Part shown: piece after piece, positions 7,199 to 39,900 of the stretch
Layout of the letters: every line of letters starts with the position of its first letter
How positions within the stretch are numbered: the stretch's first letter is position 1
IMG/VR virus record: IMGVR_UViG_3300023109_000014
Location: 18,462 to 82,461 of that record
Origin: a virus
DNA length: 64,000 nucleotides
Strand: one strand, 5' to 3'
Notes under the pieces: generated by a model
The model's input: only the letters and a program-made list of their open reading frames with translations
The model's database searches: none
What the model was told of the DNA's origin: nothing
Made by a program: the position numbers and the translations under genes

Positions 7199-7393
7199 AT
7201 GATTCAATTTTACAACGTTAGAAAAAAAGAAAAAGTGCAGATTGATCCATCTAAAGTAGAAAAAAAAGTTTATACTAGAACTACTAAAAATGGAAAGATT
7301 AGTGAACGTTATGCATTCGCAGCGGTGGATGAAGATGGAACAAAAATGACTAAATTCTGCAGTAAAGCAGATTACGATAAATTAGAAAACTAA
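7199..7393 (+). CDS. Small basic beta-rich protein, possibly DNA-binding
   Basis: 64 aa, Lys-rich; has its own GTGTA-N9 element; stop overlaps the protease start. Confidence 0.65.
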   Translation: MIQFYNVRKKEKVQIDPSKVEKKVYTRTTKNGKISERYAFAAVDEDGTKMTKFCSKADYDKLEN

Positions 7394-16921: not shown

Positions 16922-17791
16922 ATGGCCGTTACTGCAATTAACAAAGAATTATATTCCTTCTCCGTGTCTCTTGAGGTAAACTCTCAAAAAGAAGTTGAAG
17001 TCGAGAAAGAGGTTGAAATTGAAAAAGAAGTTGAAGTCGAAAGAAAAAGAAAAAACAAAGAAACTAAAAAAATGGAAACGGTTCTTGTTACAGAAACAAG
17101 AAAAGTTAAAGAGAAAAAAATCGTCAAAGAAATGCGAGATGTTGTTGAAGAGCAGCCCGTCAGAATTATTTTAAGGAAACCTACTCGTACTCAATTAGAG
17201 GATGGAGATATGTTTTATAGTATTTGGCTAAACAAGTACATTAAGATGGGTTTGCTTACTAGAGCAATGCTAGCCAAGCAACATTTAGATGTTGGTGGGT
17301 CCTTGACGGAAGAAGAAAAACAAAGATATTCTCAGCTTTACGTAAGACTTTACGAAAAGCAACAAGCTGTTCAAAGGTTTAGCTTAAAAACAGAAGAAGA
17401 AAGAACTAACGACGAATCAGAAAGATTAAAGGTCGCTGTAGAAGAATTAGGGATCATCAGGAAAGAATTGACCGATTTTGAAGCTGTGCAGGCCAGTATG
17501 TTTGATCATACCGCAGATATTAAAGCAAGAAATAAAACTATTACTTGGTACCTATTAAGTCTTGCAAATGTTTCTTATGGAGATCAAGATAATTCAGAAG
17601 TTATTCCTTTGTTTCCTGGAGAAACTTACGATGATAAGTATCAATCTTACCTAGAGCTTGACGAACAAAACGATGAAGTTTATTTGAGATCAATTGATAA
17701 AATTAGTTCTCTCGTCACAATTTGGTACATGAGTGGAGTCTCCAATCAAGAAGATTTTGATAGACTGTTAGAAGAGATTGACTCCGAATAA
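16922..17791 (+). CDS. Putative tail assembly chaperone
   Basis: Helical charged protein between tube genes and TMP; N-terminal VEVEKE low-complexity tract. Confidence 0.5.
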   Translation: MAVTAINKELYSFSVSLEVNSQKEVEVEKEVEIEKEVEVERKRKNKETKKMETVLVTETRKVKEKKIVKEMRDVVEEQPVRIILRKPTRTQLEDGDMFYSIWLNKYIKMGLLTRAMLAKQHLDVGGSLTEEEKQRYSQLYVRLYEKQQAVQRFSLKTEEERTNDESERLKVAVEELGIIRKELTDFEAVQASMFDHTADIKARNKTITWYLLSLANVSYGDQDNSEVIPLFPGETYDDKYQSYLELDEQNDEVYLRSIDKISSLVTIWYMSGVSNQEDFDRLLEEIDSE

Positions 17792-17804: not shown

Positions 17805-18881
17805 ATGGTCGAGAAACCTTCTAAAGAAAAAGAGCTTAGTCCAGACAAAATTGAAGAGCTGAATGAAATTCGGCTCCGAAAAGTACTTAGTGCCCTAATT
17901 CAAGGATCTTCTTTGATTAAAATATCTCCCAGTAAAGATAGCGTTATGCATGACATTAGCAGGACAGAGATAAAGTGTTACGCTAAGCATTTCTCGCTTG
18001 CCGATCAAATTCATCTAGATCAGAAATATGAAGAGTTTTTTTCCAAAGCTCAGGCAGGAGAAATTCCTACTAAGCAAGAAGCCTTGCAAAGAATGTACGA
18101 TAATGGGCTATGGACAGAGGAAAATGAAAAATGGGTCGCCGCTCAAAAAGAATTTATTAAAAATCTAGAACAAACAAAGTTAAAATTGACTATGTCTGCG
18201 CAGATTGCTAGCGTCCAAAAAAGCATTGATGGGGTTGAAGGTAAACTTAAAAAGCAGCAAGAAAAACGAGCAAAGCATATAGGAACTACTTGCGAGAGTT
18301 ACGCAAACGTACAAATGAATTCTTATACAATGATTTATTGTTTGTTTTCAGATGCAGAATGTAGCGAGCCCTTATTCTCTAAAGAAGATCAGGATTATTT
18401 ATCTCACGAAGATATTGGTTTGATAGTCATGTCTTACAATCAAGGCATGAAAAATCTTGATATTAGCGCAGTTAAAGAGTTATCTGTTAGCCCTTTTTTT
18501 ACTTCTTATTTTTCTTTAATTGAGGAGTCTCCCGCAGATTTTTTCGGAAGGCCTGTGCATCAGTTGAGTTTTTACCAGTTAAATTTATTAAGCTACGCAA
18601 GAGTTTTGAGATCAATAATTAAAAATACAGCTCCTCCAAAACAATATCACAGAGACCCAGACAAACTATTTGAGTGGGCAGAAAAAGGAGATAAGGCTAG
18701 AAAGCTAATGGAAAAAGCTGGTAACGAAGACAAGGCCTTTTCAATGGTTGGCGCAAAAAAAGAAGATTATGAACAAGCGGGTGTCGAAAGGCAAGGTAAA
18801 GATATTTTTGATTTAGCTAAAAGCAAAAAAGGTAAAAAGTCAGGAACTTTATCAATTATGGATTTCTTGGATGAATCTTAG
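17805..18881 (+). CDS. Putative second tail assembly chaperone
   Basis: Directly upstream of the TMP; coiled coil; FFGRPVHQLSFYQLNLL motif. Confidence 0.5.
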   Translation: MVEKPSKEKELSPDKIEELNEIRLRKVLSALIQGSSLIKISPSKDSVMHDISRTEIKCYAKHFSLADQIHLDQKYEEFFSKAQAGEIPTKQEALQRMYDNGLWTEENEKWVAAQKEFIKNLEQTKLKLTMSAQIASVQKSIDGVEGKLKKQQEKRAKHIGTTCESYANVQMNSYTMIYCLFSDAECSEPLFSKEDQDYLSHEDIGLIVMSYNQGMKNLDISAVKELSVSPFFTSYFSLIEESPADFFGRPVHQLSFYQLNLLSYARVLRSIIKNTAPPKQYHRDPDKLFEWAEKGDKARKLMEKAGNEDKAFSMVGAKKEDYEQAGVERQGKDIFDLAKSKKGKKSGTLSIMDFLDES

Positions 18882-18916: not shown

Positions 18917-21900
18917 ATGGCGCAAGAAAATATTAGAGTAAGAGTTAAGGCGATTGGGTTAGATCAAGACATCGCCAACCAAGCAAAAATAGGCGAAAAG
19001 AAAATAAAACCTATTAAGCTTTCTTTGAATGAAAAAGGGCTTGTGCAACCTCTCGGTAGAATTACTGGGCAAATGGGAGAATTCGAGAAATCGATGGATG
19101 CTGCGGTTGCTCGTGTATTCGCTTTTGGAGCTGCTGTTTCTGTTATAAATGGAGTATCTAGCGCATTAAAAGCTATGGCGCAATCTGCAATGGAAGTTCA
19201 AAAAGCTTTGAAGGATATCAATGTTATTATGAATATGTCAGAATCTGCTTTGCAAAATTTTGGCGGAGCTTTATTTGATGTTGCTAGAGATACTGCTTCA
19301 TCATTTGATGATATTTCTGCAGCAGCAACTGAATTTGCCAGACAAGGCTTAAGCGCTGACGAAACACTGCAGAGAATTGCTGACGCTATGACCTTAACGA
19401 GATTGTCTGGCATGGACTCTGTAGAAGCTGTAAATGCTTTAACCGCTGCAATTAATGGTTTTAATGACGCAGCAATCAATTCCTCTGATATTGTGAATAG
19501 GCTAGCTAATGTTGATGCCGCATTCGCTGTATCTTCAAAAGATTTAGCTGATGGATTGGCGCGAGCAGGGGCAACTGCCCAAGCTGCAAAAGTAGAATTT
19601 AACGAGCTGCTTGCTGCAGTTACAAGCGTTCAACAGCAAACCGCTAGAGGTGGCGCAGTGATTGGAAACTCTTTTAAAAGTATATTTACTAGGCTTCAGA
19701 GATCGAGCGTAAAAGAAGCTATGGAGGCTATAGGTGTCGCGACCCAGGATGCTTCTGGTTCATTTAGGTCTGGAATGGCAATCTTGCAAGATTATGCTAG
19801 AGGTTATGATAATTTATCTGACTCGCAAAAAGCTGCCACTGACGAATTAGTTGCTGGGGTTTTTCAGGTTAATAATTTAAAAGCTTTGATTAAAGATTTA
19901 AATAGTGAGTTTAGTATATACGATCAAGCTTTAAAAACTGCAAACAGTAGTACAAACGAAGCCACTCAAAGAAATCAAGAATTGAACAAGACTATGTCGG
20001 CTTTGATGACTCAAACTGGTCTATCTATTAAAGAGCTTGCTGCAGGCCTTGGAGAAATGACCCTTGGGCCTGGGATCGAGAAAGTTCTCGAAACAGTAAA
20101 ATCTTTATCTGACGGTTTAAATAACTTAATAGGTGAAGATACTGGCTCAAGCATAGGTAAAACTCTTTTAAAAGGCATTGGTAGTTTTATTAGTGGTCCT
20201 GGGATGGTTTTAATTGGGGGTGCGTTTATTAAATTATTTGCGTTTGTCGCACAACAAGGTTCGAGTGCACTAAAATCAATCTTTTCCATCAATAGCGAAA
20301 CTAAAAGACAAGAAGGTTTGCAGGCAGCAATTCTGCAAATATTAATGAATGAAGAAAGTATTCGACAGAAAATCCTGGGTGGCGCCGCAAGTCAAGCGGC
20401 GAAAGAGCAAACGATTTTAAGCGTTTTAAAAAAGCAAACCATGGAAAGGCAGGCGCAAGATGCGCTTTTAAAAAAAATCGCTGCGTCGTCTACATTAGCA
20501 AATGTCGCAATAAGTAATCAAGGAACCATTGTTCCGCATGGTAGGGGTTCTAGAGCTGCCGCAGGCAGAAAAGATCTTGGAATGTCTAAGGGTTATGTTC
20601 CTCCAGCCACTAAAGATTCTAAATTTATTCCATCTTTCGAGGCTGAACAAAAAGATATAGAGAGAAGGGTTGGAGGCGCAACTAAATCAGCTTCTCCAGT
20701 TTTAATAAAAGGTTTTCAAAAAACTAAAACGCAAAAACAAGATGTCGTCGCTAATACGGACGAGGTTGTTGTTGAAAATTATATGGGTTCGGGCGCTTCC
20801 GCCATTTTAAACAAAAACATGGCTCAAAGGTTTAGTTTTGATAATGGGGTAGAGAAATATTACTCTGCTGCAGAATATGGTTCAAAAAATTTCTATTCGT
20901 CTGGCTATGTTCCTAATTTCAAAGCAACAAATAAGCAGGTAATTAAATTAAATGCAGCTGGACAAGGAATTATAACTGCAGAAGCTGGAAAGTCAGAAGT
21001 TGGTAAAAATCATACAGTTACTGCTTCTTCAGTTTTTGATGGCCCAGTTCCTCCAGCATTTAAAGGTTCAAAATTTGAAGCAAGAAATTTTACAGTTGGA
21101 AGATTAGAACAATCTAAAGGAGGCTTTCATAGTATTGTAGATAAGCATATGACTACTGCATTAAGAGACGTTGCCCAAGATGTTGTTCCAGGTGGAAAGG
21201 TTAAAGGTTCTGGACCCCTGAGTGATTATTTAGATAAATCTGCAGGACCTCAATTTACTGGAAGAATTTTTGAGGCAACCTTAAATTATATTAAAAATTC
21301 AGTAGTTAAAAATGATCCTGGAACAGCTGGCTGGGATTTTCCTGGAGGACAGTTTCAAAAAAATCTAACTACTGCATTTAATCTTGATTCAAGAAAAGGA
21401 AAAAATGTCGATGCAAAAGTGTCATCCAGCAAAAAAAACATAGGAAGCGGCATTAAGAAAATTATTGACTCTAGGGGTGGTTATAAAAATTTAAAGCAGT
21501 ACAAAGATTTTGAAAAACAAAATAAAACTAAAAAAGCTTCTGCAGTTGGAAAACCAAGAGCTTCAAAAGGAATGATTCCATCAAATACCGCAAGTGTTCC
21601 GAATTTTGTATCCACTTGGGGTAAACCAGAATTGCTTAAAAAGATTAGAGAAAAGAATTTATCAAGAGCTCAAAAAGATATTAAAGGTTTTGACGGCATG
21701 AAGGCAACTAATGAATGGAGCGGTCAATTACCTATTATACAAGTCGCCGATAAAAAAACTGGAACAACAACTAGATTTACTTATGGTAAGGGAGAGTATG
21801 ATAACGAAAATAAGACTGACATTTTATATTCAGAAAGAGCTAAAGGGGTAGACGTAAACGATCCTTCTATGAAAGGTGGAGCTAATAGAAATTTTGATAA

Positions 21901-24900
21901 AATCGCAGAGTTTACAGGAAAAAGAAGTTGGAAAAATAAAGAGATTCATAGCACCTTTGACCAAATTCGAGCTTCTTCAGGCAAGACTCCTTGGGAAACC
22001 ATAATCAATTCATTCCCGCAATTAAAACAAAGAGTTAAGCCAGGAATGTCAACCTCGGGAACTTTTCAAATTGGTACTGATGAAATCGAATATAGAAATA
22101 TTAAATCTTTAAAAACTAAAGTTAATAAATGGGTTAAAGAAAATGGTATAGAGTCATTTAATAATTGGTCAGAAGCAAATTTAGGCTTTAATACAAAAAA
22201 CTCAATTTTAAGCGGAACTGCATCTGGCGAATATTTTGCTATGGATGCATATACAAAAATATTAAAAAAAGGAGACAAGCATTTTAATCGAGATGAAAAA
22301 GCTGGCTTTTATTCTCAGGGAACTGTCCCTAATTTTATTATTGATAAGAATACTGAAAGATCTATATTGCTTAAACAATGGCAGGGAAAACTTGATCAAG
22401 CCAGAACTCTCGCTAAATCAGGAAAACCCAGAGCTCAAACAGACCCTCAAATTAGCCAACTGAATGGCGAAGCAAATGGAATATGGAGCCAGATTGTTAA
22501 AATGCAATCCCCTCAAAAGCCAAAAACCAAAAACGAAAAAAGCCACTCTGAAGGTTTGATCCCTAACTTCTCTAGTTATTTAGATGCTGGCAGCAATGTT
22601 GATAAAAGTTTTGGAGGAGGGATTGTTCCTAATTTTGTCAAGGTTGGCGAAACAAATCTAGAGAGAGACCGCCTTTTAAAGCAATGGCAAGGCAAACTTG
22701 CACAAGCAAAAACCTTATCTCAATCGGGTAAACCCAGAGCTCAAATAGATCCTCAAATTAGCCAGCTTAACGCAGAGGCAAATGGGGTATGGAGCCAAAT
22801 CCAAAGTTTAAAAACTTCAAAAAAAGAAAAAACAGGAAAATTAGGAAAAGGTTCTACGCTTAGAAGATCTGAGGGTCTTGTTCCCGCTTTGGCAAAAGGT
22901 GGAATACCAAACTTTAGCGAAGATAAGATGCGTGAAGAAACGTTAAGTAGGACAATATCGAAAATGTCTGAAGGTTTAGTTCCCAACTTTGCTCTCAAAA
23001 GAAATGCTGGACTAAGAAAGTTTTACGATTTTGACGAAACTTTAGGAACGTATTCTAAAAACGTTAAATCTAAGGATTTATTTCAAGCGGAGTCAGCAGG
23101 GCTTGCGAAACCAACCCCTCTCGCAAAAGAACTTGAGGGGCAAGCCGTAACTATTTTAACCGCAAGAGCAAAGCAGTCAACTCCATTTATTGAAGAAAAA
23201 TTAAAGAAGTGGGGTATTAATCCTGAAAAGATTATGACTACTGCGGATATGTTTAATAATCTTAAAATTGCTAATGACGGGTCTGGAAAAATTATTAAGG
23301 CTCAAGGAGGAAGAATCTCTGGTTATAGAAATTTAAAACCTGCCGAGAAAAAAGCTATTCTTCTTGAAAGAATATGGAAAAAACAAGGAGGTCAATACGA
23401 TTTAATTGATGATGCGATTGAAAACATCGAAGCAATTAAAAACTTAAGGAATGAAAATATAACTGGCACTCATTATCAATTTAGTGGTCAGCATTCTGGA
23501 AGAGGTAGTGGGAATGCCGAAGGTTTAGTTCCCAACTTTGTTCAATCAGAAAATACTCAAAAAGATCTTGTCCCCAATTTTGCTGCAAAAAGCATGCCTG
23601 TTCCTGGTTATTTAGAAAAAGTTTCCAGAGAAATTCAGTCTGCAGGGGGTAGTGCTCAAATTGTTGGTGGGGCTCCTAGAGATTTTTTAATGGGAAAATT
23701 TCCTAAAGATTGGGATGTAGAGGTTTTTGGTTTAGAACAAGAAAAGTTGCAAAAAATATTGTCTCCATCTTTAACTAAAGAAGGTTTAGTTGGTAAAGAT
23801 TTTGGAGTATTCAAAGCTAAAAGTGGAGGTCAAGATTTTGAGTTCTCGATGCCAAGAAGAGAAAAGAAAGTGGGTGTTGGGCATAGAGGTTTTGAGGTTG
23901 AAGTAGATCCTAACATGGGGCGTAAAGAAGCTGCACAAAGAAGAGATTTAACAATCAATTCTATTTCTTACGACCCCCTTACAAAGAAATTTATTGACCC
24001 CTTGGGGGGGAGGAAGGATTTACAAGACGGCATCATGAAGCCTACGTCTCCCAGATTTAAAGAAGACCCTTTGAGAGTGTTAAGATCTATGCAGATGGCT
24101 GGAAGGTTTAATCTTTCTGCAGATAAAGAATTGGTCAACTATTCTCGAGAAATGACTGGACAATTTAAAGACCTTCCGAAAGAAAGAGTGAGAGAAGAAT
24201 GGATGAAATGGGCATCTAAATCTACCAATCCAGAAAAAGGTTTACAATTTTTAAAAGAGTCTGGGTGGATAAAACATTTTCCTGAAATTGATCAATTGCA
24301 GGGAGTTCCCCAGTCTCCCAAGCATCACCCTGAAGGAGATGTGTTTAATCACACAAAGCTTGTGACGAATGCAATGGCGAATAATAAAAACTGGCAAATG
24401 CTTCCAGAGAAAGAGAGGGGTAAATTAATGTTTTCTGCTTTGACTCATGATTTTGGAAAAGTTACAAATACACAAATAAGTAAAGATGGCGCTATAACTT
24501 CTTATGGGCACGAGAAAGCTGGAGTAGCACCAATGAAAAGTTTCTTGGGTAGGATTATGTCTCAAGGAGAAGCGAGTAAATTATCTAAAGACTTAACGCC
24601 TTTTGTTGAAAGACATATGTTTCACTCAAATTTTCCTCAGAATTTGACGCAGAAATCTATTAATAGGTTGACTAAGGACGTAGGGGACCTAAGCAAGTTT
24701 CAAATATTGCTTGAATCTGACATGGGTAAAAATTTATCGGATGATGTAACTGCCAGAAAATTTACTCAGGTTGACGAAAAAAATATTAATAAGATGAGTT
24801 CAATCGCAAAAGAAAGTGGAATATATAAAGAGCCGCCTAAGCCGATTGTACAAGGTAGGGATTTGATGCAAGAAAAATTAATAGAACCTGGCCCTCAAAT

Positions 24901-27900
24901 GGGTTCTGTATTAAAACATCTAGAAGAAGCTCAAATAAGTGGAGAGTTTAAAACTAAAAAAGGGGGAATTGAATATTTTAAAAATAACAAAGAAGATATA
25001 TTAAAACGTATTAATAAATTTACCCCAAAAGGTAGAATGTTGAGAGGGAGAGCTAGCGGAGAAGTTCCAGAAAAAATAAATTATTCTCAAGGCTTGGTGC
25101 CTAATTTTGCTAGAATACCTTCTATGTTTAACGTTAAGCAAACTAAAACTGGCAAGGATTACGTAATGCAAAAAGATTTGGAACTTGCTAAGACGCAGTT
25201 TCCTGACGCAACTTTTAAACAATGGGGCAAGAATCCAAAGATGCATTTCATTTCTGGACATAAACCTCAAAATAAAATAACGAAGGACAAGGTATCCTTC
25301 GCGTCTAACGTAGACTTGCAGGAGTTCGGTAGCTTTGCCGCCCAAAAAGGATATCCAGAAGTAATGGGAGCGATTGTTAAGTCAACTCAAGTTAAACAGA
25401 ATTCTTCAGGTAATAGAAATTATGATCGATTGACATCTTGGAAAAACAAAAAAGAAGAAGTTCCTAATCAAATAAATATTAAAGATGCCCAATCTCTCTC
25501 TACTGAAGACTACAAATCTTTTCCAATGGGTAAAGCTGGAGCAGATTTAAAAAGATTATATAATCCTGACAGTTTTGATAATGTATCTAATACAATTTTT
25601 ACTTCTTCAGCACCTCAAAAAGCTCTTGCAAAATCCGCAGAGAAATTCACTACAAATAAGATAGAAAATTCTGAGGATATATTAAATTTTGTTAAGAAAT
25701 CTCGTGGGTCAGAATCAATTTCAACCGAACAAATAAATAAATTATATCAAGAGTTTGCTGAAATGAAAGGTCTTGCAGTTATGTCTGATGGACATGTGCC
25801 TAATTTTGCTTCTCCTGCTTTTAATAAATTCATAAAAGATAATATACATAATAAAAATTATAAAAATATTTCTGATAAAGTAACTAAATTGAATCTATCT
25901 GTTGGCAATGCGTATGGAGTTGGTGGTGATATTCCTCAAGATGTTAAAATTTTAAATCGTTTAACTTCTCAATTATCTAAAGTAACAAACCCGCTCATGG
26001 GTCCAACAGGCAAAGGTTCAAGGGATAGAGTATACGAATCAAAAGAATTTGCGCAGAAATTTAACAAAACTGAGTATGACAAAATCTCAAAAGAAATTAC
26101 AACATTGCAAAAAGAAAAGTTTCAATTAAGTCGCCCATCAAATCCAGACAAAAATCCAGACAGAGTTAAAAAAATTGAGTCTCAAATTTTAAAGAAAAAA
26201 GAGCAGGCAACTAATACGCAATTTTATAAAGCTAAATCTGAAGCGGTGAAGAAAGAAGATCAAGGAATAGAAAGGTTGTTTCAAGAAAAATTTACCGTCC
26301 AAAAAGATCAAATTGTTTCGCCTACAGGTAAAACTGTATCAACTAAAGATTTAAATTCTATTGAAGAAGAGTTTAATGAATATATGTTTGCCAAGCAACA
26401 AAAAAGAACTAATACAAACGAAGAATTAGTCTTGCCCAATTTTTCTGTTACTGCCCCAGAAACAGTCCCAAACTTTGTCAACGTAAAAGCAATGAGAGAG
26501 CTTGCAAAAAGAGGTGCAACTGAAGGAGAGAGAGCTGCCGCTCAAAACATGTTAGCAAAGCATGGGTTTAAGAGTAAAACAATCACATCTAGAAGTTGGC
26601 ACGATAAAATATTTTTAGAAAATTATATTAAAAATAACGGTCCTAAGTCTGACCTTGAGATGTTAATTAAGAAAGGTTATGCTGAGAAAGAATTAGTTTC
26701 CCTAAAAAAACAATATCAAAATGACCCTCAATCTGTTAAAATTGCAAATCACGGTATTGTTCCAAGCTTCTCAAAACAAAAAGACCGAATAAGTGAAGCG
26801 GATTACGAAACCCAATTGTATAAAGAAAACTTTAAAGACTCATCTCAAAAACAAAACGTCAACAATTTTAGCTTTGTCGATGACAGAACAACCTCTTCTT
26901 CAGGCTCTCAAAGTTTTGCAGAGGGTATGGTTTCTAAAGACGTAAGCTCTAGCAGTTCTTCTGTAGACTCCAAAAGTTTTGCAAGTGGAACTGTTTCCAA
27001 TATTTCTTCGCAAGAAACTGAAACTTTAGCAACTGGGTTTATTCCAAACTTTGGTATTCAATCTGACCGAATCAAGGAAGCGAGTCAAGCCTCTCAACTT
27101 TACGGACAAAATGTTGGGTATAAAGATACTCAAGTTAAAAAATTAGAAATTAACGGAAAGAAAGAGAGAGTTGTAGTAAACAATAAAGAAAAATTTTACT
27201 CTACTGGTTCAGAAGTTCAAAAAGCTTTTAGCCTCCCTTTTAAACCTAATGGAGGAATGGTTTTGCCTCCAAAAAATACTAAAGTCGGAAAAGAAAGAAG
27301 TAGAGAGTTTAGTAGTTTGGTTAATTCTTTTTCTAGCGGCGTAACTCCTACTGCCGATTCTTCTCCTCCTACTTTGGCTTATGGAGCTATGCCAAATTTC
27401 GCGGTATTCAGAAAATATTCTCCAAACACCTTAAGGAAATCCAAGATTAAGGATTATTCTAACGAAGAGTTTTCTTCGATAAGTAGAGCTTTATCGGAAT
27501 TTAACCTTATGTCTATGGGGTCTAGAGGAGGTTTGATGGGTCAAAAATTAAAGTCTGAGTCTCGAGCAGAAGGTTTATTTAAGACTAAGACGCAAGAGCA
27601 AAAAGATGATTTTAGACAATTTTTTAATTCAAGAGAGTTTAGAAGCTTAACAAAGAATGTTCAGGAAAAACTTAAAGTTGATTTTCCCGATTTATCCAGG
27701 GGTTACGGTTATAACGTTGACCCTTTTGCTGTGAGGCAACTCGAGAATGTAAGCGCTGGAACAGTTCCAAATTATGCAAATTTAAGTTTATATAGAGGGC
27801 AAAAAAAATCAACTATAGATAAACCCAGCGTTGGTAAAAATATGCCAAGCTTTGGCGGCGCACAAACTCCTCGAGACATTATTAATATAATTCAAAATTT

Positions 27901-30900
27901 TGTTAAGTCTCACGTCAGCGGCCCTCTCTCTGGAAGAAGAGATATTGGAGAGTTAGATAATGTTGCTCCGTCTGGCGCTACCTCATTTAGCACTTCAGAA
28001 ACTGTCGCTAAGAAATTTGCTGGAGGAGGTTTAAATAAGCCTGCAAAAGATAATATACTTTCCACTCAGGTTCCAGAAAAAAATGTATTTAATAAAAAGA
28101 AAATTCTTAAATTATTAAATCGAGGAGCTAATCCAAAAAAAGGCCAATACCCAGAAGTAGAAAAATTTAAAAAAGCGATGGCTTCTGGACAAATTCAAAA
28201 ATGGGCAGAGCAAGCTGGGGGACTTTTCTTGAATGTTTCTGGCAGAAGAAATGATAAGTCTCTTCAGAAATTTAATAAAACGGAATACGGTCGAAAAGAG
28301 TATGATTTTTATGATAGACCTATGAGTTCAATTGTGCCTGAGTCTGATATTGGTTGGAATCCTAGTGGAACTAAACAAATCAGTCCCCACGAGAATGAGG
28401 TTATGCAAATTTTTGACGAAGGAATTGTACCTAATTTTTCTGGAGCAGCTGGTTCTGCAGGCAGGCAAAAAAATAAAGCCTATCAGGACGACCCCGACAA
28501 TATTATAGATTTAAGGCCGTTTACTACATTTGATTATTCTTTATTATTTCCCCAAAGAGGTGCTGGAAAATCTAAAGATGAAACATTAAGAGGGAGTGGG
28601 CCATATGCAAAAAAATATCAAAGTCAATTTCTTGTTGGTTGGAATGCAAAAGGAATAAATCCAAAAATCCCTAAAGAAGCTGATAAGATCGCAAAAATAG
28701 GAGACGCTGTAGAAAGAGATGTTAAAACTATAGTTAAAGCTCATTCTGAAAATTTCGTTAGAGCTTTTGGCGAAGAAAAGATTAGAATACAGGATTCGTC
28801 TGCAATTGATGGAGTTGTTCAAAAACATTTTAACGAAGGAACTTTAACGGCGATGGCTGGGAACGCTTTTGAGGCCGCTGCAAATACAGCTTTTAGCAAC
28901 GTACCTGTAAACGCGGGAGGAGGAGATTTTGATGTTAGAGGCCCAACCGATCAGTTAAGGAGGTTTTTTAATTGGCCTTCTGCTCACGGATCCGTAGGAG
29001 ATTTTAAGGCCAACTCTCAGTCGGGAGATATTAAAGCTAGCATGGCGGACAAGATATTAAAGGAGCTTGATTATAGAGGTTTATTATCTGGACAAGTTGC
29101 AAAAGAAAAAGCTGACTTTGATCAGTATGATAAAGATAAGGCGGCAAAAAACAAAGCAGCTACCATCTCTCGATTTAAAAATGTTCCTGGGTCAAATTCT
29201 TTAAGAGGAGGGATTACCCAAAAAGCTCCAAAAGGTTCAGCACCTTCGGAATCAAACCAGCAACATTCTAAAATCGTCGGCTCTAGTCGATCGGGTCAGG
29301 AACAAGAGGATTTCTACTTTTCTCAAGATAAAAACTTATCTCTCGGTTGGGTTCCAAACTTTAAAATAAATCAAAATCTTGCGGGAGATTCTGTTCCAAG
29401 TTTTATTGATAAACCTAAGGAGCAGTTAAATAATTCGCTAAAAGTTAAAAGCGAAAAAGTTGACTTGCAAAAATCCCTTAAAGCAAAAAAAGGTACTTCT
29501 GTAGATTCTCAGAACGAGCTCAGAAGTCAAAATGTATCTAACGCTTCGGCGAAAAAGTTTGAGTCAATCATTAATAATCGATTTATTGATTCGCAGGAAA
29601 ACAAAAAGTTTTCTTCTAGCTCTTTCGCAGATTCCGCTCAGTCTAAAAGTTTACAATTTTCTCGATCATCCAGCAACCTTTCTTCAGATTTTCTTAATAC
29701 TCGATCTGAAAATAAAGTTTCGAAAGACGCTTCTGTGGATTCGCAAACTTACTCGCAGGGCATGGTGTCGAAAGACGCTTCTGTGGATTCGCAAACTTAC
29801 TCGCAGGGCATGGTGTCGAAAGATAACCAAGTGCCTTCTAAATCTTTAGAAGCCTCTAAATTTGATTTGACTACCATACATAGGCTGAGAGATAAATTTT
29901 TGTCAAGAGAGGAAGCTGTACAGAAAAATATTTCGCCTAGTGAGCGTAAGCTTGCGTTGCCTAAAGGTAAAAAGCAAGAAGGCAACTCTGAGTTAATCAA
30001 TTCAATTTATTCTCACGGCAAAGATTTCTCTGCGGATAGGTTATCTAATGGTTACATTCCTAACTTTGCAATTAATGCAAATAATTATTCAAAGACTAAT
30101 GATGCTTTAGGTTCCGCAATTAAAAGAGAAAATCAGGCGGGAATTCCAATGAATAAAATTAGAGTGGGTCAAAGCAATCGATTGAAAAATGAAAAAAATC
30201 CTGGAGGAGTTGGAGTGTTTAATACAATTGATGAACCAAGAGGTTTAAATCAAGGTATTAGTAGGTCTATATCTCAAGGAATCAATCCTCATAAACATGG
30301 CCTTGTTTCTTCTGGTTATGTCCCCCAACAAACAATTAACGTTCCTAATTTTGTTGGAAGGTTTATTCCTAAAATGTTTAAAGGCGGAAGTAAGGGGGGT
30401 AAAGGTGTTGACGCTCCAATTCCAACTTCGGGTGGAGGTGGAGGCGGAATGTTAGGGGGTGGCGGAGGCTTAATGAATACTATATTTATGGGGCAAATGA
30501 TGTTTGGAGGCATAGAAGGTAAAACTGGTACTGCAGGAGGATATGCGGCAGATGCTACTGGAGACGCTTTGCAGATTGCAGGAATAACATCAATGATCAC
30601 AGATAAAAAGAAGTGGGTTGCTTTAGCTGCAACAGTTGGAGCTTTGAATGGAATGCTTGACCAATATTCAAAAAGCTTAAAAATGCAGGGAGAGCAAATC
30701 CAGAAGAATATTCAAATTAATGGAAAAGCTATTGAGAGCGCAACTCAAGTTGTTTCTGCCCAAACAAGACTTAATTCTGCAATAGAATCTGGCAACACAG
30801 ACAATATATCTAAAGCTATTGAATCCCTCCAAAAAGAAATAGAAAGGTTTCCAACAAATGGAAGCGACGCTATAATTAAACTTCGCAGCGACCTTGTTGG

Positions 30901-33900
30901 CGCTGGTGGAGATGTAGAGATTATGTCGAAAGCTTTAGAATCATTTTCTCAATCTGCTCTTAAGGTTTCTAAATTAGGAGAACTAACAGTTAAAACTCAA
31001 GCTGTTAACGAAAATAGAGAAGGTTTAATTTTTGGAATGGGGCCTTCTCAACTGCCTGAATGGATGGGTGGAGCTAAAGGAGATTTAAAAGAAGAGGGTT
31101 CAAATGAAATTAGGCAAATAGGTAGAGAATCTGTGACTAACTTAGCGCTTGCAGAAGATCAGGTTTCAGCATTTTCTTCTAAAATTTCAAAAATTGATTT
31201 TACAAAAATGTCTCCCGATGATATTAAGTCTACGATTAAAGAGTTTTCTAGAACTTTAGACGAAGAAACTAGAGTTTTGTTCGATCAGATTGTTGATAAT
31301 GTTCCTGATGATGCTGTTGTCGATTTTACCATGGGTATTGGCGAGCAATTAAAGCTAAGAAAATCTTCCATAGAGGCTGGCAAGGCTGTTGGAAAAACAT
31401 CTCAAGCTCTTGGTAATTTAAAAAGTACAATTGTAAATTTATCTACAGCTGTCAGCAGAAGTATATCAGAATTAAATTCTAATATTTCTAAAGCTTTTGA
31501 TATTGCTGAAAACCAATTAAATTCTGAATTGAGTATTATGACAGGGATGAATTATATTAGCCCTAAGGAAGCGAATGAAACTAAGGAACAGTTTGAGGTT
31601 ACAAGAATCGAAAGTGAAGCTGCTGCAGGCACTGAATTTGAGGTATCTAAATTCGTATCTCAATTAATTAAAGATACGAAACTTGACGATGTAGAGGGTA
31701 AGGATGCATCTATTTTTTCTGGAAAACTTGGAAATATTCTTTCAAAAATGGGAGAGCGAGCAAATCCATTGCAAGACGAAGATCCGAGGTTTATGGCAAA
31801 TGAAATAGTTTCTGCTATAAGTCAAATGGATCCAGCAGACCGAACTCAAGGCGAACAAGAATTATTAGATGCAGTCAAGCAGATTGGGGACAAGGCCGCT
31901 TCTCAAATTACTTTATTAAAACAGGCTAACGAATTGGCTTCTAGACAGCAAACAATGCAGAGCAGAATGAACCTGCAAAATGCTCAAATCGATATGGAGA
32001 GAGACGGCGATACGCTATCTCAATTTTCATGGTCTCAAGGCTTAGAACCTAGAACTCAGCTAGATAAAGATATGCAGACTCGCTCTAGTATGGATATGAT
32101 TGGTTTACTTGAGCCTTTATTTGGACCTAGTGAAGATCTGACTAAAATGAAGCAAGACGTAGGCGTTCAAAATGCAATTGGCAATGTACAAAGAATACTT
32201 CTTGGAATGGGTATTGAAAACGATGCTGGTTTTGATGCTGGCGCTAATGAAGATATTAGTATGCAAACAATGATTTCTGAAATGCAAAAAGTTTTAGCTC
32301 AAGGAGATTTAAATAAAGGGCAAGAAAAAATCGTAAACTACATGGTTGGCCAATTAAAAAAGCAGGAGGCCGCTATTTCTGCAACCCCGCAAAATACAGA
32401 AGATCTAAAGAGACAGACTGTTCAGTCTACATCTGATGTTCTCGGTGTTGATTTAAGCGAAGTTGGTATTGATTTAGAGTCTTTGGATTTTAGTTCCCTC
32501 AATGCTATTGCTGATCAACTCGCAGAAGATGGCGTTGAGATAAAATATTTATCAAGCATCGAAGAAAATACGAAAGTTATGGCTGCAAAATTAAATGATG
32601 CCCAAGGAATTACCAAGGAAGATATAATAAGCGCTATACAGAACATACAAATTAAAGATGCTGAAAAAGTAGAGAAAAGAAAGGAAGCTGTTAAGCAAAA
32701 AGAAGACACTCGTAGTAAAATACAAGATATTGCTATATCTGGCGCCGATGTGAAAGTTGAAGGGGGTGCAGATATAAATGTAGGCGGTAGCACTACTATT
32801 AACGCTAACCCTCAAAGTTCTCAACCTCCTCAACCGCAATTTAATCCATTTGTACCTAACTTTGCAAAAGATGAGTCCAGCAATAATAAACAATCTCCAA
32901 TGCGAGGTTTTGTGAAATCCCTTAAAAGAGATAACAATACTGAAAACAGGGGTTTTGAAAAGTTTGATGGAAAAACTTTTACTGGCGGTAAGGCATTGCA
33001 AGTGGCAAATTATTATCCTGGAGCTATCGACTCAATCTATAGAGAAGTTGACGTTTTGGAAAATAGAGGTGTGCAGAATGCTATTAGCAAAATACAGTTA
33101 ACTGTTCCATCTACATCTAACTCGACCACAAAATATCAAGGCCCAGTAGTTACAAATATGATGGACGAAGGAAGCGTTTCTGCCCAAAGCTATTTGAATA
33201 AAATTAACAACGTACATAATTTAAAACATTCTGATTCAAATTTTAGTATTGCTGGCGCAGTTCCTAATTTTGCATCCTCTTCTCAGTCTCGCGGTTCAGT
33301 TAATGCTTCTGTGAGAAATGTTAATGCTAAATCAATTGCAAATAATATTTCAAGAATAAATCAAAAAAGTGATTGGAAGATGGCAAGAGGGGAAGAGAGC
33401 GCTGGAAAAACTTATTCTTCTGGAGCTGCATTAAGGGTTGCGAATTATTACCCAGAAACAAAAGAAATGTTAGACCAGGAAATTTCAATTCTTAAAAGTA
33501 GGGGTATAGATAGCCCATTAAGCCAAGTTCAGTTAACTGTTCCAGACGAAAACACTACAACTTTTCAAAATAAGAATACATTAGATCCTACAATATCGAA
33601 TCGATTTGATGATGGTTCTGTATCAATATCAAATTATACAAAAAAAATTAGGAACGCTCACAAGGTAGGGTTGCTGACTCCCCAGAAACCAGCAAGCGTC
33701 GGAGAGCATGCTCGTGAAAGGGCAAAAAATTTAGTTAATAACGAACAAGCTTTAAGGAATCAGCTGCACGAAAACATTCTTAAGAAAAGAAAATCCGTTG
33801 TTCTCTCCGAGGAGTTAAAATCCAGAAATGAAAGTATAGATGAGCCTGAGGCAAAAAAAATAAATATTACTGAGAAAGAGGGTTTGAAGTATGAAGGAGG

Positions 33901-36900
33901 AACATTTTCTGCGGGAGCTGCTTTGAGGGTTGCAAAATATTATCCTGGAGCAACAGAATCTATATTTAGGGAAATTCGATCTTTGGAAGAAAAAGGCGTT
34001 TCAAGCCCTCTTGATCAAGTCCAGCTTACTATTCCAGAAAAAGGTTCGAAAGAATTTTCTTCTTATAACGGACCAGTGGTTACGAACAAAATTGATGAAG
34101 GAGGAGTAAGTTCTAAAAATTATCTTAATAAAATTAGAAGCGTTCATAAGGTAACTCCTAATGAAGGGCAATTTGCTTCTGTAGGAATGCCTAATATTGA
34201 TGCGAAAAGTCAATATACTAGAGGGGCAATAAATAGCTTTTCTCAATTCGATTATGTTCCTAATTTTAGCAAAACAGAGGGTCGAGCAAAGGGAATTATT
34301 CGTTCTGCTAGAGAGCTAAGTATTGCTATGGAAAAAATGAATGAGCTTCCTGAAAATATTACCCCTTCTCAAATTGCGGAATTTAATCAAAAGGGGTCTG
34401 CCGTATTAGAAAATATTAATAGCTTAGGCAACCCAAACCAGCAAACTCTCACAAAAACACAAAAAGCTCTTGTTTCAAAAATGCAGGATCCAGAAGTTGT
34501 TAAAACTTTTCAGTCCATTGGGATAGATAACTTTAATTCTGATCTTGCTCAATTTGTTAACCCTGACAGTCTTGGAGAACCTCCTCAACCAGCTAGATTT
34601 AACCCTTTAGTTATTCAAAGTGCCGAAACAGGGCGGGCGGTTGAAAGCGGCACAAAGGTACTTCCGAGAGATATTAAGAGCGGTAAGTTTAACGTTGCGC
34701 AAGTTATGCTTAATGATGAAAATTTAGATGAATTTATTGAACCTTCAGAATCTAAAAATATTCAAGCAGTCGTTCAGTCTTCTCAAGACAGCGGGCAAAA
34801 GTTTAACGAAAATAAGAAAAAGTTACAAGAAAAGCGGCCAAATTATGCTAGTGGTAAGGGTACTCGCTATACTGATGAACCTACCGCTCCAAAAGCTGGA
34901 ACACTAACTACCGCAAAGAAAGAAGGTTTTGTTGGTATAGAGTCTCACGGCCCTTCAAAAGCGCTCGCAACCCAAGTGAGAAACGAGGAAAACGCTTTAA
35001 AGAACACTACAAAAGAATTAGTTAAGGATGGTGAAGGAGGATTCATGAGAAATGCTTCCTCTTGGATTCGCAAAAAATTACAAACTATAAGGTTTCTTGA
35101 TGGCAGCTCCAACGAGCAGAAACAAGGGATGTCTATAGAAAAAGAAAATGCTGTATTAAAGCAAATAGAAGATGATGGAATTGTTCGATACCCATCAGAT
35201 GATAGCGCTTCCCCTTTAGAGAAATCGCCAGAATTTAAACAACAAATTTCTGAAGTTTTAGACAATCAAGATTTGTCTTCTCAGGAAAGGGGTACGTCCC
35301 AAATTGAACAGCAAACAGAAACTTGGAGAAAAAGAGAGCACTCTCTTACAGAAAAAATTCAGAGAGCTACAAAAGCAAGACAACTCAAAAGACAAAGAAG
35401 CAGGGCTCAAGAGCTAGGTTCTGCCGAACGACAAAGAAAAACAAATTTAGATGCCAAAAATAAAAGACAAGAAGCTAAAGAAAGAGAGAAGCGGAAGGTT
35501 CGAGAAATCCAAGAAAGGCAAATTGATGAAGGTTTAGGTCGACAGAAAATTGGCACCAATTCAGAAACTGGAAAAAGTATTTATCATTACGATAACCCTC
35601 AACTTAGAGAATTAAGCTCTTGGGATAAGTTGAAGCATCACATGCTAAAATTTGTTGGGTTAGACGAGGGTTCGTATTACGAAGAGGTTGAACGTCAAAA
35701 TAAGATCGTAAGAAACAAACAAATGCAGGATATTGCTACTGGCGGAATTAATACTCAGCAATCTAAGTCTATGTCAACTCTTGAGAAGCTTAAATTAATG
35801 TCTGAACGCGATGTTCTAATTGAGTCTAGCGAGTTTGCAAAAGAAACAGACGGACAAAAAATATTAAGAGGAACTCCAGGCGAGCGAAGAAAATCTTCTT
35901 TGTTTGACATTCAACAAAAAGCAGGGGTCGGCGGAAAGCCTGCGGTTATTAATCTTGCGGGAGATATTTCTAGCCAAACGAATATCGCTGGCAGTTCATC
36001 TAAGTCTAGTAGTTTGACTCAATTATCTCAATCTAGAGCTGCCGAAGCTCAGCCCACGTTAATGGATAAGATAAGGAACGTTAAAAAACAACTGTCTGAA
36101 AAATTTGGAAAAGTAACATTAAGTCCAACAAGCTCGGCCTCTGTTCTGCAAGAGTATGATATTCTTGATTCTAGTGGAAGGGTCGTAGCTAAAATGGGTT
36201 CCAATGGTGAGGTGCTACCTTTTGAAGTTGATAATTCACCTGTTATATATAACGCTCAGGGTCAAAAAATAGGAGCGGATAAAGTAATTCAAGTTCAGGA
36301 GAAACAGTTTGCGTTGCAAAGCTCTCCCATGAATGATGGCCAGTTATCTACAAGCGTTAATCAATCTGACGTGTTAGAACAAAAAGCTTTATTTGATATT
36401 GGTGAAAAAATTAAAAGCGGAGCGCCTATTTCTTCAGCGGAAACTAATTTAGTTCAAAATTGGGCAAATAAAAATTCAGAACTTGTCGGCTCGATTAATG
36501 CAGACGATGTAGATAACGCTCTTTTGTTAGAAAATAACGTTGTCGATAATAAGCAAATTAGAATTGGTAGGATGGGCGAGGAACTTTCAAATTTAACATC
36601 TGTTACGAATGCAGCAAATGCAGAAGCTCAGGTAGAGTCTTTAATTAAAGACCCTCAGTTCGTTGATAGCGCAACTAGGACAATGCCTGGAGATAACTTG
36701 CATTTGCAAAGAGTTTTTGATTCTATAGATGATAAAAATAGGAAAACGAAAAGTACCCCAATCAAAACAGAGACTGCGTTGGATAGGGTTAAGAGCAATG
36801 CTAATATAAATCAAAGAGCAAATGCTTTAAGCAAAGAAATGGTATCTAGAGATATAAGAAAAAATTCATCCCTAGAACTTCAGAAAAGATTAAGACTAAA

Positions 36901-39900
36901 CAAAGGTTTTGATACAACCGAATTAAATACAAAGTTTTCCAACGAAAAATCCAGGCTTGAGGAGTTATTGAAAAATCCAAGTATTCCTTCTGATAAGAAA
37001 GTTGGCCTAAACGAAGATTTAAAAATATTGACAAGAAATCGGAATGAGCATTTAAATACTCTTAGACCTGGTTTTATGGAGAGAAAGGAAATATTAATAA
37101 ACGAACAGTTTAAAAATATTATGAGAGACACTGGTTTAATGTCGTTGACTGGAGGTGGCGCAGACGGAGTTTCTTCTAACGATCCAGTTAATCAGTTTAT
37201 GAAAGATAAGCTTGGGCCGAAAGTTTGGAACATGGATGGAAATTTTGTTAAAACTAAACAGCATTTGGCCAGCGCAATTTTTGGCGAAGAGCATAAATTT
37301 AATAAAGAGTTGACTGAGTCATTAGTTGATAGGCAGTTAAGATCGACAATATTAAATACAAAAAGTGAAACTTTTGGGTTGAGTGATCATATGCGTTCTA
37401 ACCTTATAGACATGGATAAATTTGTAGGTATGGGTTTAGGCGATGAATTTTTGAACAGTGCAAAAAAACAAGGATTACATCAATCAGATATAGGCGTTTC
37501 TAAAATGGTGGACTTTATGGATCTTATGGATCCTGCTGGCAATAAAATTGACGGAGAGGGTAAACAAAAATTAAAAAAACAAGGCATTCAAAAGATATTT
37601 CAAAAAATCCAGAACGGAGAATTATTTTCTCAAACTGCGATTAGAGGAAGAACAGTTCCTATAATACCTAAAGATGCAGAAACTGTCTTAAAGAACCTTT
37701 CTGGAGAAAGTACATCCGCACAAATAAACGCTGCGAGATTAATTGAAAATGAACAGAAGATATCTTCTTTAGCTGCAGAAAAAGGAAGTGGCGTAATTAG
37801 CCAGTCAAATTTAAAAATCGCTGCAAGTGAATTAGAGGCGGGAGATATTAACGAAAATGGTATAGACTTTGACAAAGTTAGGATGAGCTCTGAAGAAATT
37901 TCAAACGTTCAATCTATGATGGATTCTATTGACGCAGACCCCGATCAAAAAACAGATCAAAGAGTTTCTCAATTGTCTGAAGCTCTTGATCCACAATCAA
38001 GCAACGAATCTGTGCGAAGTTTATCTCAATTAAAATCTCTTGAATTAGAGGCTGACAGAGCTGCAGAAAAAGCAGAATTTAAAAAGTTATTAAGTTTGGG
38101 TAGCGGGGCTACTCCTGAAGATGTAGGTAGAATGTCTGACCTGCTTCAGTTACATGACCAAAAAATAGAATTAGGTAGATCTTCTAATTTTGATTTAGAA
38201 GACGTAAATCAAGCGAGAACAACTATTAAAAATACCGCCAAGGAAAAAGTTGCAACAGCTAGCTCCACTATTGGTAAAGAACTTTCTCAAAAGAGTGAGC
38301 CTGGACAAGCACAAAAAAGAGCTATAGAGGAATTAGAAAAAATTGATCAAGCTGATCCTGTTGAGCAGGCTGAAGCTATACGTTCAACAAATCAAGAGGC
38401 AGAGGCAAAGGTTCGGTCAGCGAGTTTGGATCAGGGAGAAGATATAGTTCAACAAACAGTTGATCAGGTCGAAGATGTTGATGAAACATGGAAGGAAACT
38501 AAGGAGTCTCACATGTCTGATCCAGATAGAGCTGCTTCTGCTGGAAGACTGGAAGAATTGGGTGAAAAGTATCGAGCAATAATCCAATCCGCTACAGATA
38601 GTAAAGCATGGAGAACGACAAGGTCATTAACTAAAAATGTTCTAGGTGCTGGAATGGGACTTGTTCATCTTCCAGGAAAAGCTAAAGATTTAACAACTGA
38701 AGCTTATGGAAGCGTTAAGGAAAGAATTGATGCATTTAAAAAGGCTCAGGCAGAGAAATTTAATAAAAGAAAAGCAGAACAAATAAAGCATCCAGACGGA
38801 AAATCTTCAGGAAATTTTGAACAGCAAGAGAAAAGCAGAGTAATTGACGCTAAACTAGCTCAGCTGCCAAACACGAAAACAAGCAGAGGGGATTCAAGCT
38901 TGGACGATAGCCTTCAGAAAACAAAAAGATTTCATATTGATGGAGAAAATATGACACCCTTTGAGCAAGATCTTCATGATAGAATGACTGGCAAAGTTAG
39001 AGTCAAGGATTCTGCAGGCAAAACAGTAGAAACTTTTTACGATAAAAAAATTGCATCAGTGATTACAAACTCAGATGTTGGTAGAATTTCCAGGGTTGAG
39101 GATTCTATTACTGGTAGCTCTTATACTAATCGAGGTTTAAAGTTGAGAAATCTTCTTCCTGGAACTGCAAGTAGAAACATTGAGGGTCGATCTTTTATTC
39201 CTCCAGCTTTGCAGGAGATCGCATCGCTAGGTGGTCTTGATGGTCAAGGTAGCAAATTAAAGCTTGATAAAGAAGGCCTTGCTCAAAGAGCTAAAAATAT
39301 TGGCTCAGAAATATTTACTGGAAAACTTAGCTCTCCCGTTCAGAGCCTTTTTTCTACTAAAGAATTTCAGACTCAACTTGCGGAAACTAAATCTAGCGGA
39401 GCTCATGTAGCAATTCCTGAAGAATTTTCAAAAACCGTAAAATACGGAAAAAAGGGAGAAGCTAGTGTTTTAGATATAGATGGTGCTGCAGATGAACTTA
39501 TAAAAGAAACAAGATTGATTGATCATGTTGGAGATGATGGCAAGCTAACTAGTTTTTCTTCAGATGAATTTCAAGCTTTCAGGGAATCAGAATTTCAAAA
39601 AATAGAACAAAGATTTGCGGGCGTTGATAATCCTGCAGATCCAGTTCAGAACGAACAAAGAATAACTCAAATTAACGAACAAAAAGAAATGTTCGATAAT
39701 AAAATTCTTGCCAATAATGCAGTTGATGAATCTGGCCAAGTTGTTGGTAGAAACACATTAACCTCAGAAGCCGCTCGAAAAAGAATTGCAAACATCCAAA
39801 AAATGTCGGTATCTGATGGTATGATTAGAAAGCAAAAGGCTATTAGTGATGCAGCCAATTTTGGTGGAGGGTCTGCCCGAGGAATGACTGTATCGAGCTT

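Follow-up and report, generated by a model that had tools for sequence, protein, structure and literature searches.

The 64,000-nucleotide window analysed here, bases 18462-82461 of the 82,461-bp virus record IMGVR_UViG_3300023109_000014 of IMG/VR, carries on its plus strand one open reading frame (ORF) of 10,437 amino acids (aa), 18917..50230, which takes up 38% of the genome and holds every copy of a short peptide motif, SxGx[VI]PNF. Our sequence comparisons make it very probable that this motif forms the junctions of a cargo rack within a phage tail tape measure protein (TMP): its copies bound domain-sized segments that differ between relatives as whole units, it is conserved as a peptide over a large protein family, and among the plus-strand ORFs of 80 related loci its strict form is confined to the TMP.

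Results

A giant tape measure protein carries the motif

By sequence, the giant ORF is a phage tail TMP of the TP901 family: PF10145 (PhageMin_Tail) matched at aa 122-307 with 99.4 bits against a Pfam cut-off of 33.2, and five tape measure PHROGs matched within aa 26-503 (E 5e-50 to 1e-18). Hydrophobic segments at aa 62-80 and aa 424-446 flank this core. From its identity as a TMP alone we infer that the protein is packaged in the virion and injected. The ORF is about twice as long as the 5,002-aa TMP of phage P23-45 that was published as “giant”, and the open frame of one relative (G002) reaches 10,562 aa.

The literal pattern S.G.[VI]PNF matches eight times in the giant ORF, and the core [VILMA]P[NSD][FYW] has 29 matches, of which 27 fall within aa 569-5117 (20621..34267); the remaining 5,300 residues contain two loose core matches only. 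For PNF, composition predicts 0.9 occurrences; there are 22. The original prediction, made by a model from the letters and their reading frames, had placed about 23 copies between 20.6 and 30.4 kb, where we count 24; the close pairs that it listed (22559/22625, 22904/22979, 23528/23570, 26432/26465 and 29351/29393) are all present, with spacers of 11-25 aa, and the half-motifs FAEGMV (aa 2667), FASGTV (aa 2688) and YSQGMV (aa 3612 and 3628) do sit in Ser-rich short repeats, as it had described. A six-frame scan of the rest of the 82,461-bp genome returned four loose matches outside the giant ORF, none of them with G at position −2.

The codons of the motif follow gene-wide usage. Among the [VILMA]PN[FY] copies, Pro is written CCT in 12 of 23 (0.51 gene-wide), Asn is written AAT in 14 of 23 (0.74 gene-wide) and Phe is written TTT in 19 of 22 (0.88 gene-wide); the most frequent 12-nt core accounts for just 4 of the 23 copies. 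Comparison with a relative of 59% identity shows P, N and F conserved at 0.96, 0.93 and 0.89, respectively, and the flanks at about 0.44-0.67. Because synonymous codons vary as they do in the gene at large while the amino acids stay conserved, these comparisons establish, at the level of sequence, that the motif is under selection as a peptide and not as DNA, which agrees with the earlier suggestion that conservation lies at the protein level.

A large family shares the motif and the tape measure core

From 64 motif windows of the giant TMP and two relatives we derived a profile of 32 positions; its search against 1.84 billion representative proteins gave 573 hits at E ≤ 1e-3, of which 97 reached E ≤ 1e-10. 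Most of the 573 are TMPs of 2,000-5,000 aa. The best 150 of the 573 are 293-4,978 aa long and have 4-14 matched stretches each; the N-terminal TMP core is common to 128 of these 150, and the few motif proteins that are named carry the label “TP901 family phage tail tape measure protein”. The consensus of 1,218 copies reads [A 48%/S 32%]-x-G 87%-[F 50%/Y 23%]-[I 54%/V 40%]-P 100%-N 95%-F 91%-A 62%. The aromatic position is F in 91% and Y in 9% of copies, the residue at +1 is A in 62%, S in 10% and G in 4%, and the Asn is replaced by Ser in about 5%; positions −4 to −2 are almost devoid of acidic residues, and positions −7 and −5 are enriched in basic ones.

At least 512 loci in IMG/VR encode the TMP core, of which 80 were retained for locus comparisons. 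Across these 80 loci, 202,426 TMP residues contain 359 copies of the strict motif, and 268,058 residues outside the assigned TMPs (plus-strand ORFs) contain four; all four lie in one TMP, and the strict motif is found in no non-TMP plus-strand ORF of the 80 loci. Chance and low complexity as origins of the motif are ruled out by the enrichment, by the six-frame scan and by the 80-locus counts. Cultured phage relatives of the TMP core reach at most about 30% identity.

Some family contigs (L089-L113) have been binned into metagenome-assembled genomes (MAGs) of several phyla, with labels that include Halobacteriovorax, Nitrospinales, Verrucomicrobiales and Saccharibacteria. Of these 25 MAG-binned loci, with 38-67% identity to the core, nine are labelled Flavobacteri* and the best is labelled Neomarinimicrobiota; the binning of phage contigs is unreliable, and the multi-phylum labels probably reflect phage contigs swept into bins. 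In one related IMG/VR contig (L061, 12950..13450), the TMP frame breaks in a run of A's, 37 aa past the fourth motif. We considered this split TMP as a natural sign of cutting and rejected it: the break falls in the A-run and the next frame continues the protein, as expected of a frameshift or a sequencing error and not of a border between genes.

The motif marks the borders of exchangeable modules

For segment clustering, 153 proteins were cut at the motif. The resulting inter-motif segments of at least 50 aa (n = 983, median 166 aa) fall into 389 sequence clusters, and these module clusters recur at differing ordinal positions with many different neighbours. Spacings between motifs are irregular, from 3 to more than 800 aa, with 106 of 1,139 below 30 aa.

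The 8,166-aa relative G001 differs from the giant TMP (G000) by whole modules. It is without six consecutive modules, the tRNA nucleotidyltransferase described below among them, and has one other module in that place; BLAST homology restarts exactly at ETVPNF (aa 2515-2520). Two further single modules are also missing from G001, and the module between GWVPNF (aa 3477) and GYIPNF (aa 3712) is cleanly absent. Across 72 proteins, the edges of BLAST blocks inside the arrays lie within 10 aa of a motif for 58% of starts and 70% of ends, versus 12% of random positions, figures that gain from the anchoring effect of the motif itself and from the large number of core alignments that stop at the first motif. 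The original prediction had proposed a protein-level signal at the edges of cassettes, and this reading is upheld by the relatives, in which the motif bounds domain-sized segments that are gained, lost and reordered as units. Its further suggestion, that paired motif copies are scars of lost cassettes, is possible.

Two related domains bracket the array

The smallest members of the family, about 1,700-2,100 aa long, have four motif copies (M1-M4) in the layout: core, M1, a small domain of about 75 aa, M2, one variable module of about 220-270 aa, M3, a small domain of about 65 aa, M4 and a C-terminal part of about 1,000 aa. Larger members have additional modules inserted between M2 and M3. The two small domains, which we call bracket domains, are about 65-85 aa long, always have a motif on both sides, and stand one at each end of the array. 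The closing bracket domain (RE...NPxGLxVxN..DEP) is the most frequent module of all, with 102 copies in 99 of the 153 proteins, in which its family closes the array; on its left it meets 69 kinds of neighbour, on its right only 19. The opening (aa 575-660) and closing bracket domains match each other in hhalign with a probability of 97.6% (E 4e-12, 80 columns), a score inflated by the flanking motifs that both alignments contain.

The original prediction had singled out an “E...VxNxxE” domain as a possible reader or cutter of the motif. Such a domain does exist, as the bracket domain that opens and closes the array; its supposed role in reading or cutting the motif gained no support. Searched against Pfam with 32 sequences (E ≤ 1), the bracket domain gave nothing consistent (best family, 2 of 32), and it was matched by none of 50,697 phage records. 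AlphaFold2 modelling of aa 3700-3830 from a 32-row alignment gave a confident alpha-beta-beta-alpha core for the terminal bracket domain, with predicted local distance difference test (pLDDT) values of 82-90. No convincing structural match emerged: Foldseek comparison of this model with the PDB returned none at E ≤ 1e-3, and VIA-align against 48,161 chains gave a best Z of 2.9.

The motif lies outside the fold in two modules

The module with the clearest identity is a tRNA nucleotidyltransferase, matched by PF01743 at aa 1582-1707 (E 5.9e-19) and by phrog_2244 at aa 1582-2007 (E 4e-67); the unit spans aa 1582-2018. Alignments with solved CCA-adding enzymes and poly(A) polymerases begin at aa 1560-1576, opposite residues 3-23 of those enzymes, and extend to aa 2027. 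Because this region stays between the two neighbouring motifs, the copies at aa 1550-1555 and 2059-2064 are placed outside a complete CCA-adding enzyme. In the AlphaFold2 monomer of the terminal bracket domain, both flanking motifs have pLDDT below 50 and no secondary structure. The alternative raised with the original prediction was that the motif is an integral strand of a repeating fold; in these two modules it lies outside the enzyme in one case and is unstructured beside the domain in the other, and alignment and modelling together establish it as exposed rather than folded in both.

A further module, characterised by an R / S-x-S / E-x-E pattern, conserves LYRGQ, SFSTS and E-x-E in nine homologues; the pattern starts 5 residues after one motif and ends 8 before the next. 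By its residue pattern alone the module looks like an ADP-ribosyltransferase of the R-S-E type. It had no Pfam match, and a word-based homologue search for stand-alone relatives of 138-440 aa gave none at E ≤ 1e-3; a prediction of the module with both motifs from a 7-row alignment gave an unusable model (mean pLDDT 35.5), and in this module the peptide may have a structural role. Ten single modules searched against Pfam at E ≤ 0.5 gave nothing above any cut-off, and the one array module with a verified family is the tRNA nucleotidyltransferase.

Neighbouring genes and other features of the window

Upstream of the TMP gene, ORF 15219..16070 matched Phage_tube_2 below the cut-off (24.2 bits against 27) and also hit a minor tail PHROG (E 6e-6). 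Between it and the TMP gene lie two family-less ORFs, in an order conserved in 70-72 of the 80 loci. The proteins that they encode, of 289 aa and 358 aa, belong to no Pfam or PHROG family, and their profiles found nothing below E 0.2 among PDB sequences; we regard both as candidate partners of the motif. Complex prediction of the two proteins with a 32-residue motif window gave an interface score (ipSAE) of 0.00 in two runs without controls, a value that says nothing on binding. In one relative (L003) the frame of the 358-aa gene opens one codon before its start, and a frameshift fusion with the 289-aa gene looks unlikely.

The C-terminal part of the giant TMP, aa 5118-10437 (34268..50230), is almost free of the motif, has only weak internal similarity and gave no match in Pfam, PHROG or PDB sequences. 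It comprises about 5,300 residues, versus about 1,000-1,400 aa in typical family members, and if all of it served as “ruler” it would imply a very long tail. It includes a weak EF-hand-like loop at 44114..44170 (PF00036, E 4.3e-5, 23.2 bits, below the cut-off of 25.4). Within the array, motif-bounded units have been duplicated recently at 22310..22990, where aa 1132-1240 and aa 1232-1358 are 49% identical, and at 32852..34237, with three repeats of about 150 aa within aa 4646-5107. Elsewhere in the window, a proline-rich repeat (VPSVPEVPSVPGVPSFPGVPSIP...) at about 63250..63400 lies in a plus-strand frame that overlaps long minus-strand ORFs. The coordinates of the features are collected in Table 1.

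Table 1. Coordinates, in the window, of the tape measure gene, its motif copies and modules, and the two genes directly upstream
Feature	Position	Strand	Basis or remark
Giant TMP ORF, 10,437 aa	18917..50230	+	PF10145 and tape measure PHROGs
Conserved tape measure core, aa 1-568, two hydrophobic segments	18917..20620	+	PF10145, PHROGs; core common to 128/150 motif-bearing proteins
Motif KFIPSF, aa 569-574, first fence (M1)	20621..20638	+	Motif scan
First bracket domain, aa 575-660, conserved N..E	20639..20896	+	Clustering, hhalign
Motif GYVPNF, aa 663-668	20903..20920	+	Motif scan
Motif ASVPNF, aa 892-897	21590..21607	+	Motif scan
Motif GTVPNF, aa 1135-1140	22319..22336	+	Motif scan
Motif GLIPNF, aa 1213-1218	22553..22570	+	Motif scan
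Motif GIVPNF, aa 1235-1240	22619..22636	+	Motif scan
Motif GGIPNF, aa 1328-1333	22898..22915	+	Motif scan
Motif GLVPNF, aa 1353-1358	22973..22990	+	Motif scan
Motif GLVPNF, aa 1536-1541	23522..23539	+	Motif scan
Motif DLVPNF, aa 1550-1555, directly ahead of CCA-adding enzyme	23564..23581	+	Motif scan
Motif-to-motif module with tRNA nucleotidyltransferase (CCA-adding/poly(A) polymerase family)	23582..25090	+	PF01743, phrog_2244, solved enzymes
Motif GLVPNF, aa 2059-2064	25091..25108	+	Motif scan
Motif GHVPNF, aa 2292-2297	25790..25807	+	Motif scan
Motif LVLPNF, aa 2504-2509	26426..26443	+	Motif scan
Motif ETVPNF, aa 2515-2520, exact restart of G001 homology	26459..26476	+	Motif scan, BLAST
Motif GIVPSF, aa 2613-2618	26753..26770	+	Motif scan
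Half-motifs FAEGMV and FASGTV, Ser-rich repeat, aa 2667-2693	26915..26995	+	Sequence
Motif GFIPNF, aa 2707-2712	27035..27052	+	Motif scan
Motif GAMPNF, aa 2823-2828	27383..27400	+	Motif scan
Motif GTVPNY, aa 2948-2953	27758..27775	+	Motif scan
R / S-x-S / E-x-E module	27776..28420	+	Nine homologues; residue pattern only
Look-alike KNMPSF inside R / S-x-S / E-x-E module, conserved there	27836..27853	+	Homologue alignment
Motif GIVPNF, aa 3169-3174	28421..28438	+	Motif scan
Motif GWVPNF, aa 3477-3482	29345..29362	+	Motif scan
Motif DSVPSF, aa 3491-3496	29387..29404	+	Motif scan
Two half-motifs YSQGMV, tandem Ser-rich repeat, aa 3612-3633	29750..29815	+	Sequence
Motif GYIPNF, aa 3712-3717	30050..30067	+	Motif scan
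Terminal bracket domain, aa 3718-3804, RE...NPxGLxVxN..DEP	30068..30328	+	Clustering, hhalign, AlphaFold2
Motif INVPNF, aa 3807-3812	30335..30352	+	Motif scan
Motif PFVPNF, aa 4644-4649	32846..32863	+	Motif scan
Motif GAVPNF, aa 4780-4785	33254..33271	+	Motif scan
Motif DYVPNF, aa 5112-5117, last copy of the array	34250..34267	+	Motif scan
289-aa gene, tail-assembly-chaperone position, candidate trans-acting partner	16922..17791	+	Homologue in 70/80 loci, about 2 kb upstream of TMP gene
358-aa gene, immediately upstream of TMP gene, candidate partner	17805..18881	+	Homologue in 72/80 loci

Discussion

Possible functions of the junction peptide

We infer that the motif acts as an exposed linear signal read by one constant factor, an arrangement that would let any cargo plug in without a change of reader. 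What this factor would do is a matter on which we take a tentative position: we prefer, over docking, the reading of the motif as a processing site that is cut after assembly and ejection. The TMP with its cargo modules would be assembled into the tail and then expelled into the host; the chain would then be cut at or beside the junction peptide, plausibly between the aromatic residue and the small one; and cutting would free single enzymes, the CCA-adding enzyme and others, from a membrane-anchored core. Our preference stems from the role of repeated identical flanks elsewhere as protease sites, from the aromatic residue followed by a small one in the consensus, a shape compatible with a scissile site, and from the argument of Iyer et al. 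2017 that enzymes with different targets do better when freed (PMC5512222). Proteases recognise the repeated identical flanking peptides of viral polyproteins, polyubiquitin and cyanobactin precursors, and to our knowledge the same holds for identical repeated flanks around unrelated cassettes in every known system. Several observations nonetheless weigh against processing. Searches with Pfam, PHROG, PDB sequences and the HExxH peptidase signature found no protease or protease-like domain in the giant TMP, and beyond the TMP core and the tRNA nucleotidyltransferase the protein gave no match in Pfam, PHROG or PDB sequences; HExxH is absent from the three giant proteins (G000, G001 and G002) and occurs in 27 of the 150 family proteins. 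The original prediction had named the product of ORF 7393..8940 as a prohead protease that might act on the motif, a proposal that gained no support: the ORF has no Pfam or PHROG match, and a prohead protease works in the capsid whereas the TMP is a tail protein. A language-model lead for this ORF from Atlas (YonD_N in 22 of 30 hits, Peptidase_S77 in 5 of 30) is weak, with a score of 0.93 and 147-166 shared features, below the guide value of 170. If the protease were the host's, it would have to be shared by all the hosts of this very broad family, given the several phyla among its MAG bins. The motif fences both bracket domains even in minimal members with one module, which points to a role intrinsic to the TMP; cutting would have to come only after assembly, because cuts at all four sites would part the core from the C-terminal part; and the roughly 5% of copies with S in place of N are easier to reconcile with recognition than with a chemistry based on Asn.

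Nearly as good an account, which we hold possible and somewhat less likely, is a docking signal without cutting: the motif would be bound by a constant partner that loads the modules, keeps them unfolded or pulls them, and this partner could be the 289-aa and 358-aa proteins, the inner surface of the tail tube, or a ubiquitous host chaperone that works as a ratchet. An exposed, unstructured and strictly conserved peptide at every module edge fits docking equally well, and the motifs around the bracket domains of minimal TMPs point to a role in assembly or ejection. Docking is also favoured by the two family-less genes, which stand directly upstream in 70 and 72 of the 80 loci, and by the example of phage lambda, whose TMP is coated along its length by gpG/gpGT. 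Hsp70-type chaperones favour a hydrophobic core with basic, not acidic, flanks, a preference that the motif resembles in its hydrophobic core, its upstream basic residues and its excluded acidic ones. The authors of the P23-45 study propose that a polymerase fused to the TMP remains on the TMP pore (PMC10770324). Docking is weakened by the failure of our searches to find a partner and by the insufficiency of a single 9-residue site per module of about 170 aa to keep that module unfolded on its own; as a tag for recruitment in trans, the motif should also appear on separate proteins, and there are none in the 80 loci. Inter-chain pairing, in which motifs of neighbouring TMP chains join mutually or with bracket domains as short strands that hold the register, seems unlikely: a hydrophobic, aromatic peptide with Gly and Pro is found in turn and strand-edge elements, the bracket domains are always flanked by the motif on both sides, and such pairing would be invisible to monomer predictions, but the motif is unstructured in the monomer model and its copies are unevenly spaced (3 to more than 800 aa apart). 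It is more improbable still that the junction peptide and the bracket domain, with its conserved E, N and D/E-E, make up a self-contained new processing system in which the domain, of roughly 60 residues, reads the peptides and triggers a cut at P-N|F on exit from the tail; by analogy, such a cut could be an Asn-driven self-cleavage like that of tetravirus capsids, which cleave themselves at an Asn|Phe bond. Least probable of all, to the point of being nearly dismissed, is a mere recombination junction, with the repeated coding sequence as micro-homology for cassette exchange and a functionless peptide: module gain, loss and reordering do break at the motif, yet the codons vary while the amino acids are kept (0.89-0.96; 1,218 copies), and the top 12-nt core covers only 4 of 23. 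A sortase-like reading, suggested by the likeness of I-P-N-F-A to LPXTG/LPNTA, was rejected on account of F at the position of the essential Thr, the many internal copies and the lack of a C-terminal sorting signal.

If the peptide is what enables one reader to deal with any cargo, the first protein that enters the host would be a rack into which finished enzymes can be plugged. Such a rack would be the equivalent, in the tail, of the internal proteins packaged in phage heads and of polyvalent proteins. It would account for the outlay of 38% of a phage genome on a single gene; it would place hundreds of uncharacterised module families (389 clusters from 153 proteins) in a shared setting, as candidates for early take-over or anti-defence functions; and it would supply a nine-residue tag with which the delivery of proteins through tails of the siphovirus type could be tested. 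Should the self-contained processing system prove true, the TMP would be a programmable multi-effector injector, with any protein pluggable between two nine-residue tags. The family concerned comprises at least 512 IMG/VR loci and 573 representative proteins.

Comparison with known systems

In the literature searched, from which most subscription journals and supplements fell outside, we found no description of the motif or of motif-fenced TMP arrays. The closest precedent that we could confirm is gp96 of Thermus phage P23-45, a 5,002-aa TMP whose N-terminal part is a virion RNA polymerase, a fusion that its authors term “previously unsuspected” (Nat Commun 2024, PMC10770324). As the giant TMP would, gp96 carries a working enzyme into the host within one TMP polypeptide; it differs in having one N-terminal enzyme, and the accessible text of that article describes no module array or repeated junction peptide (PMC10770324). 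The giant TMP is twice the length of gp96 and has an N-terminal core with the cargo behind it.

Iyer, Burroughs, Anand, de Souza and Aravind argued in 2017 that injected multi-domain phage proteins need cutting into units, and assigned the processing of polyvalent proteins to a zincin-like metallopeptidase domain (PMC5512222). In concept, the polyvalent proteins of phages and conjugative elements are the nearest class: like the giant TMP they are very large polypeptides with many unrelated domains in variable order, and they are injected, as the giant TMP probably is (PMC5512222). A combination of unrelated modules of the polyvalent type is present in the TMP family, with 389 module clusters in shuffled order, one of them with a verified family. 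Unlike many polyvalent proteins, in which it is frequent and not universal, the giant TMP is without an HExxH metallopeptidase; in the main text of that article the term “tape measure” is absent, and its accessible passages describe no repeated delimiter peptide (PMC5512222).

Among TMPs of the TP901-1/SPbeta type, YomI of SPbeta has a homologous N-terminal core (30% identity over aa 79-397), and in its 2,285 aa, unlike the giant TMP, it has zero copies of the motif. YomI carries cell-wall hydrolase domains. In viral polyproteins, polyubiquitin and cyanobactin precursors of the PatE type, one peptide flanks varied cassettes and one enzyme processes any of them, and in these multi-cassette precursors, unlike the giant TMP, both the protease and the products are known. 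The junctions of polymorphic toxins, VENN of CdiA and DPxGL of Rhs, are likewise short peptides at the border of a constant and an exchangeable part and serve as swap points; there, each bacterial toxin has one junction, whereas the giant TMP has up to 27, in a phage structural protein and with unrelated sequences. The internal proteins and Alt of phage T4 resemble the proposed cargo in that they travel in the virion and are injected with the DNA; a phage protease recognises a short motif and removes their leader, the capsid-targeting sequence. They are separate head proteins, cut by gp21 in the capsid at L/I-x-E, whereas the giant TMP is a single tail protein with a motif of its own.

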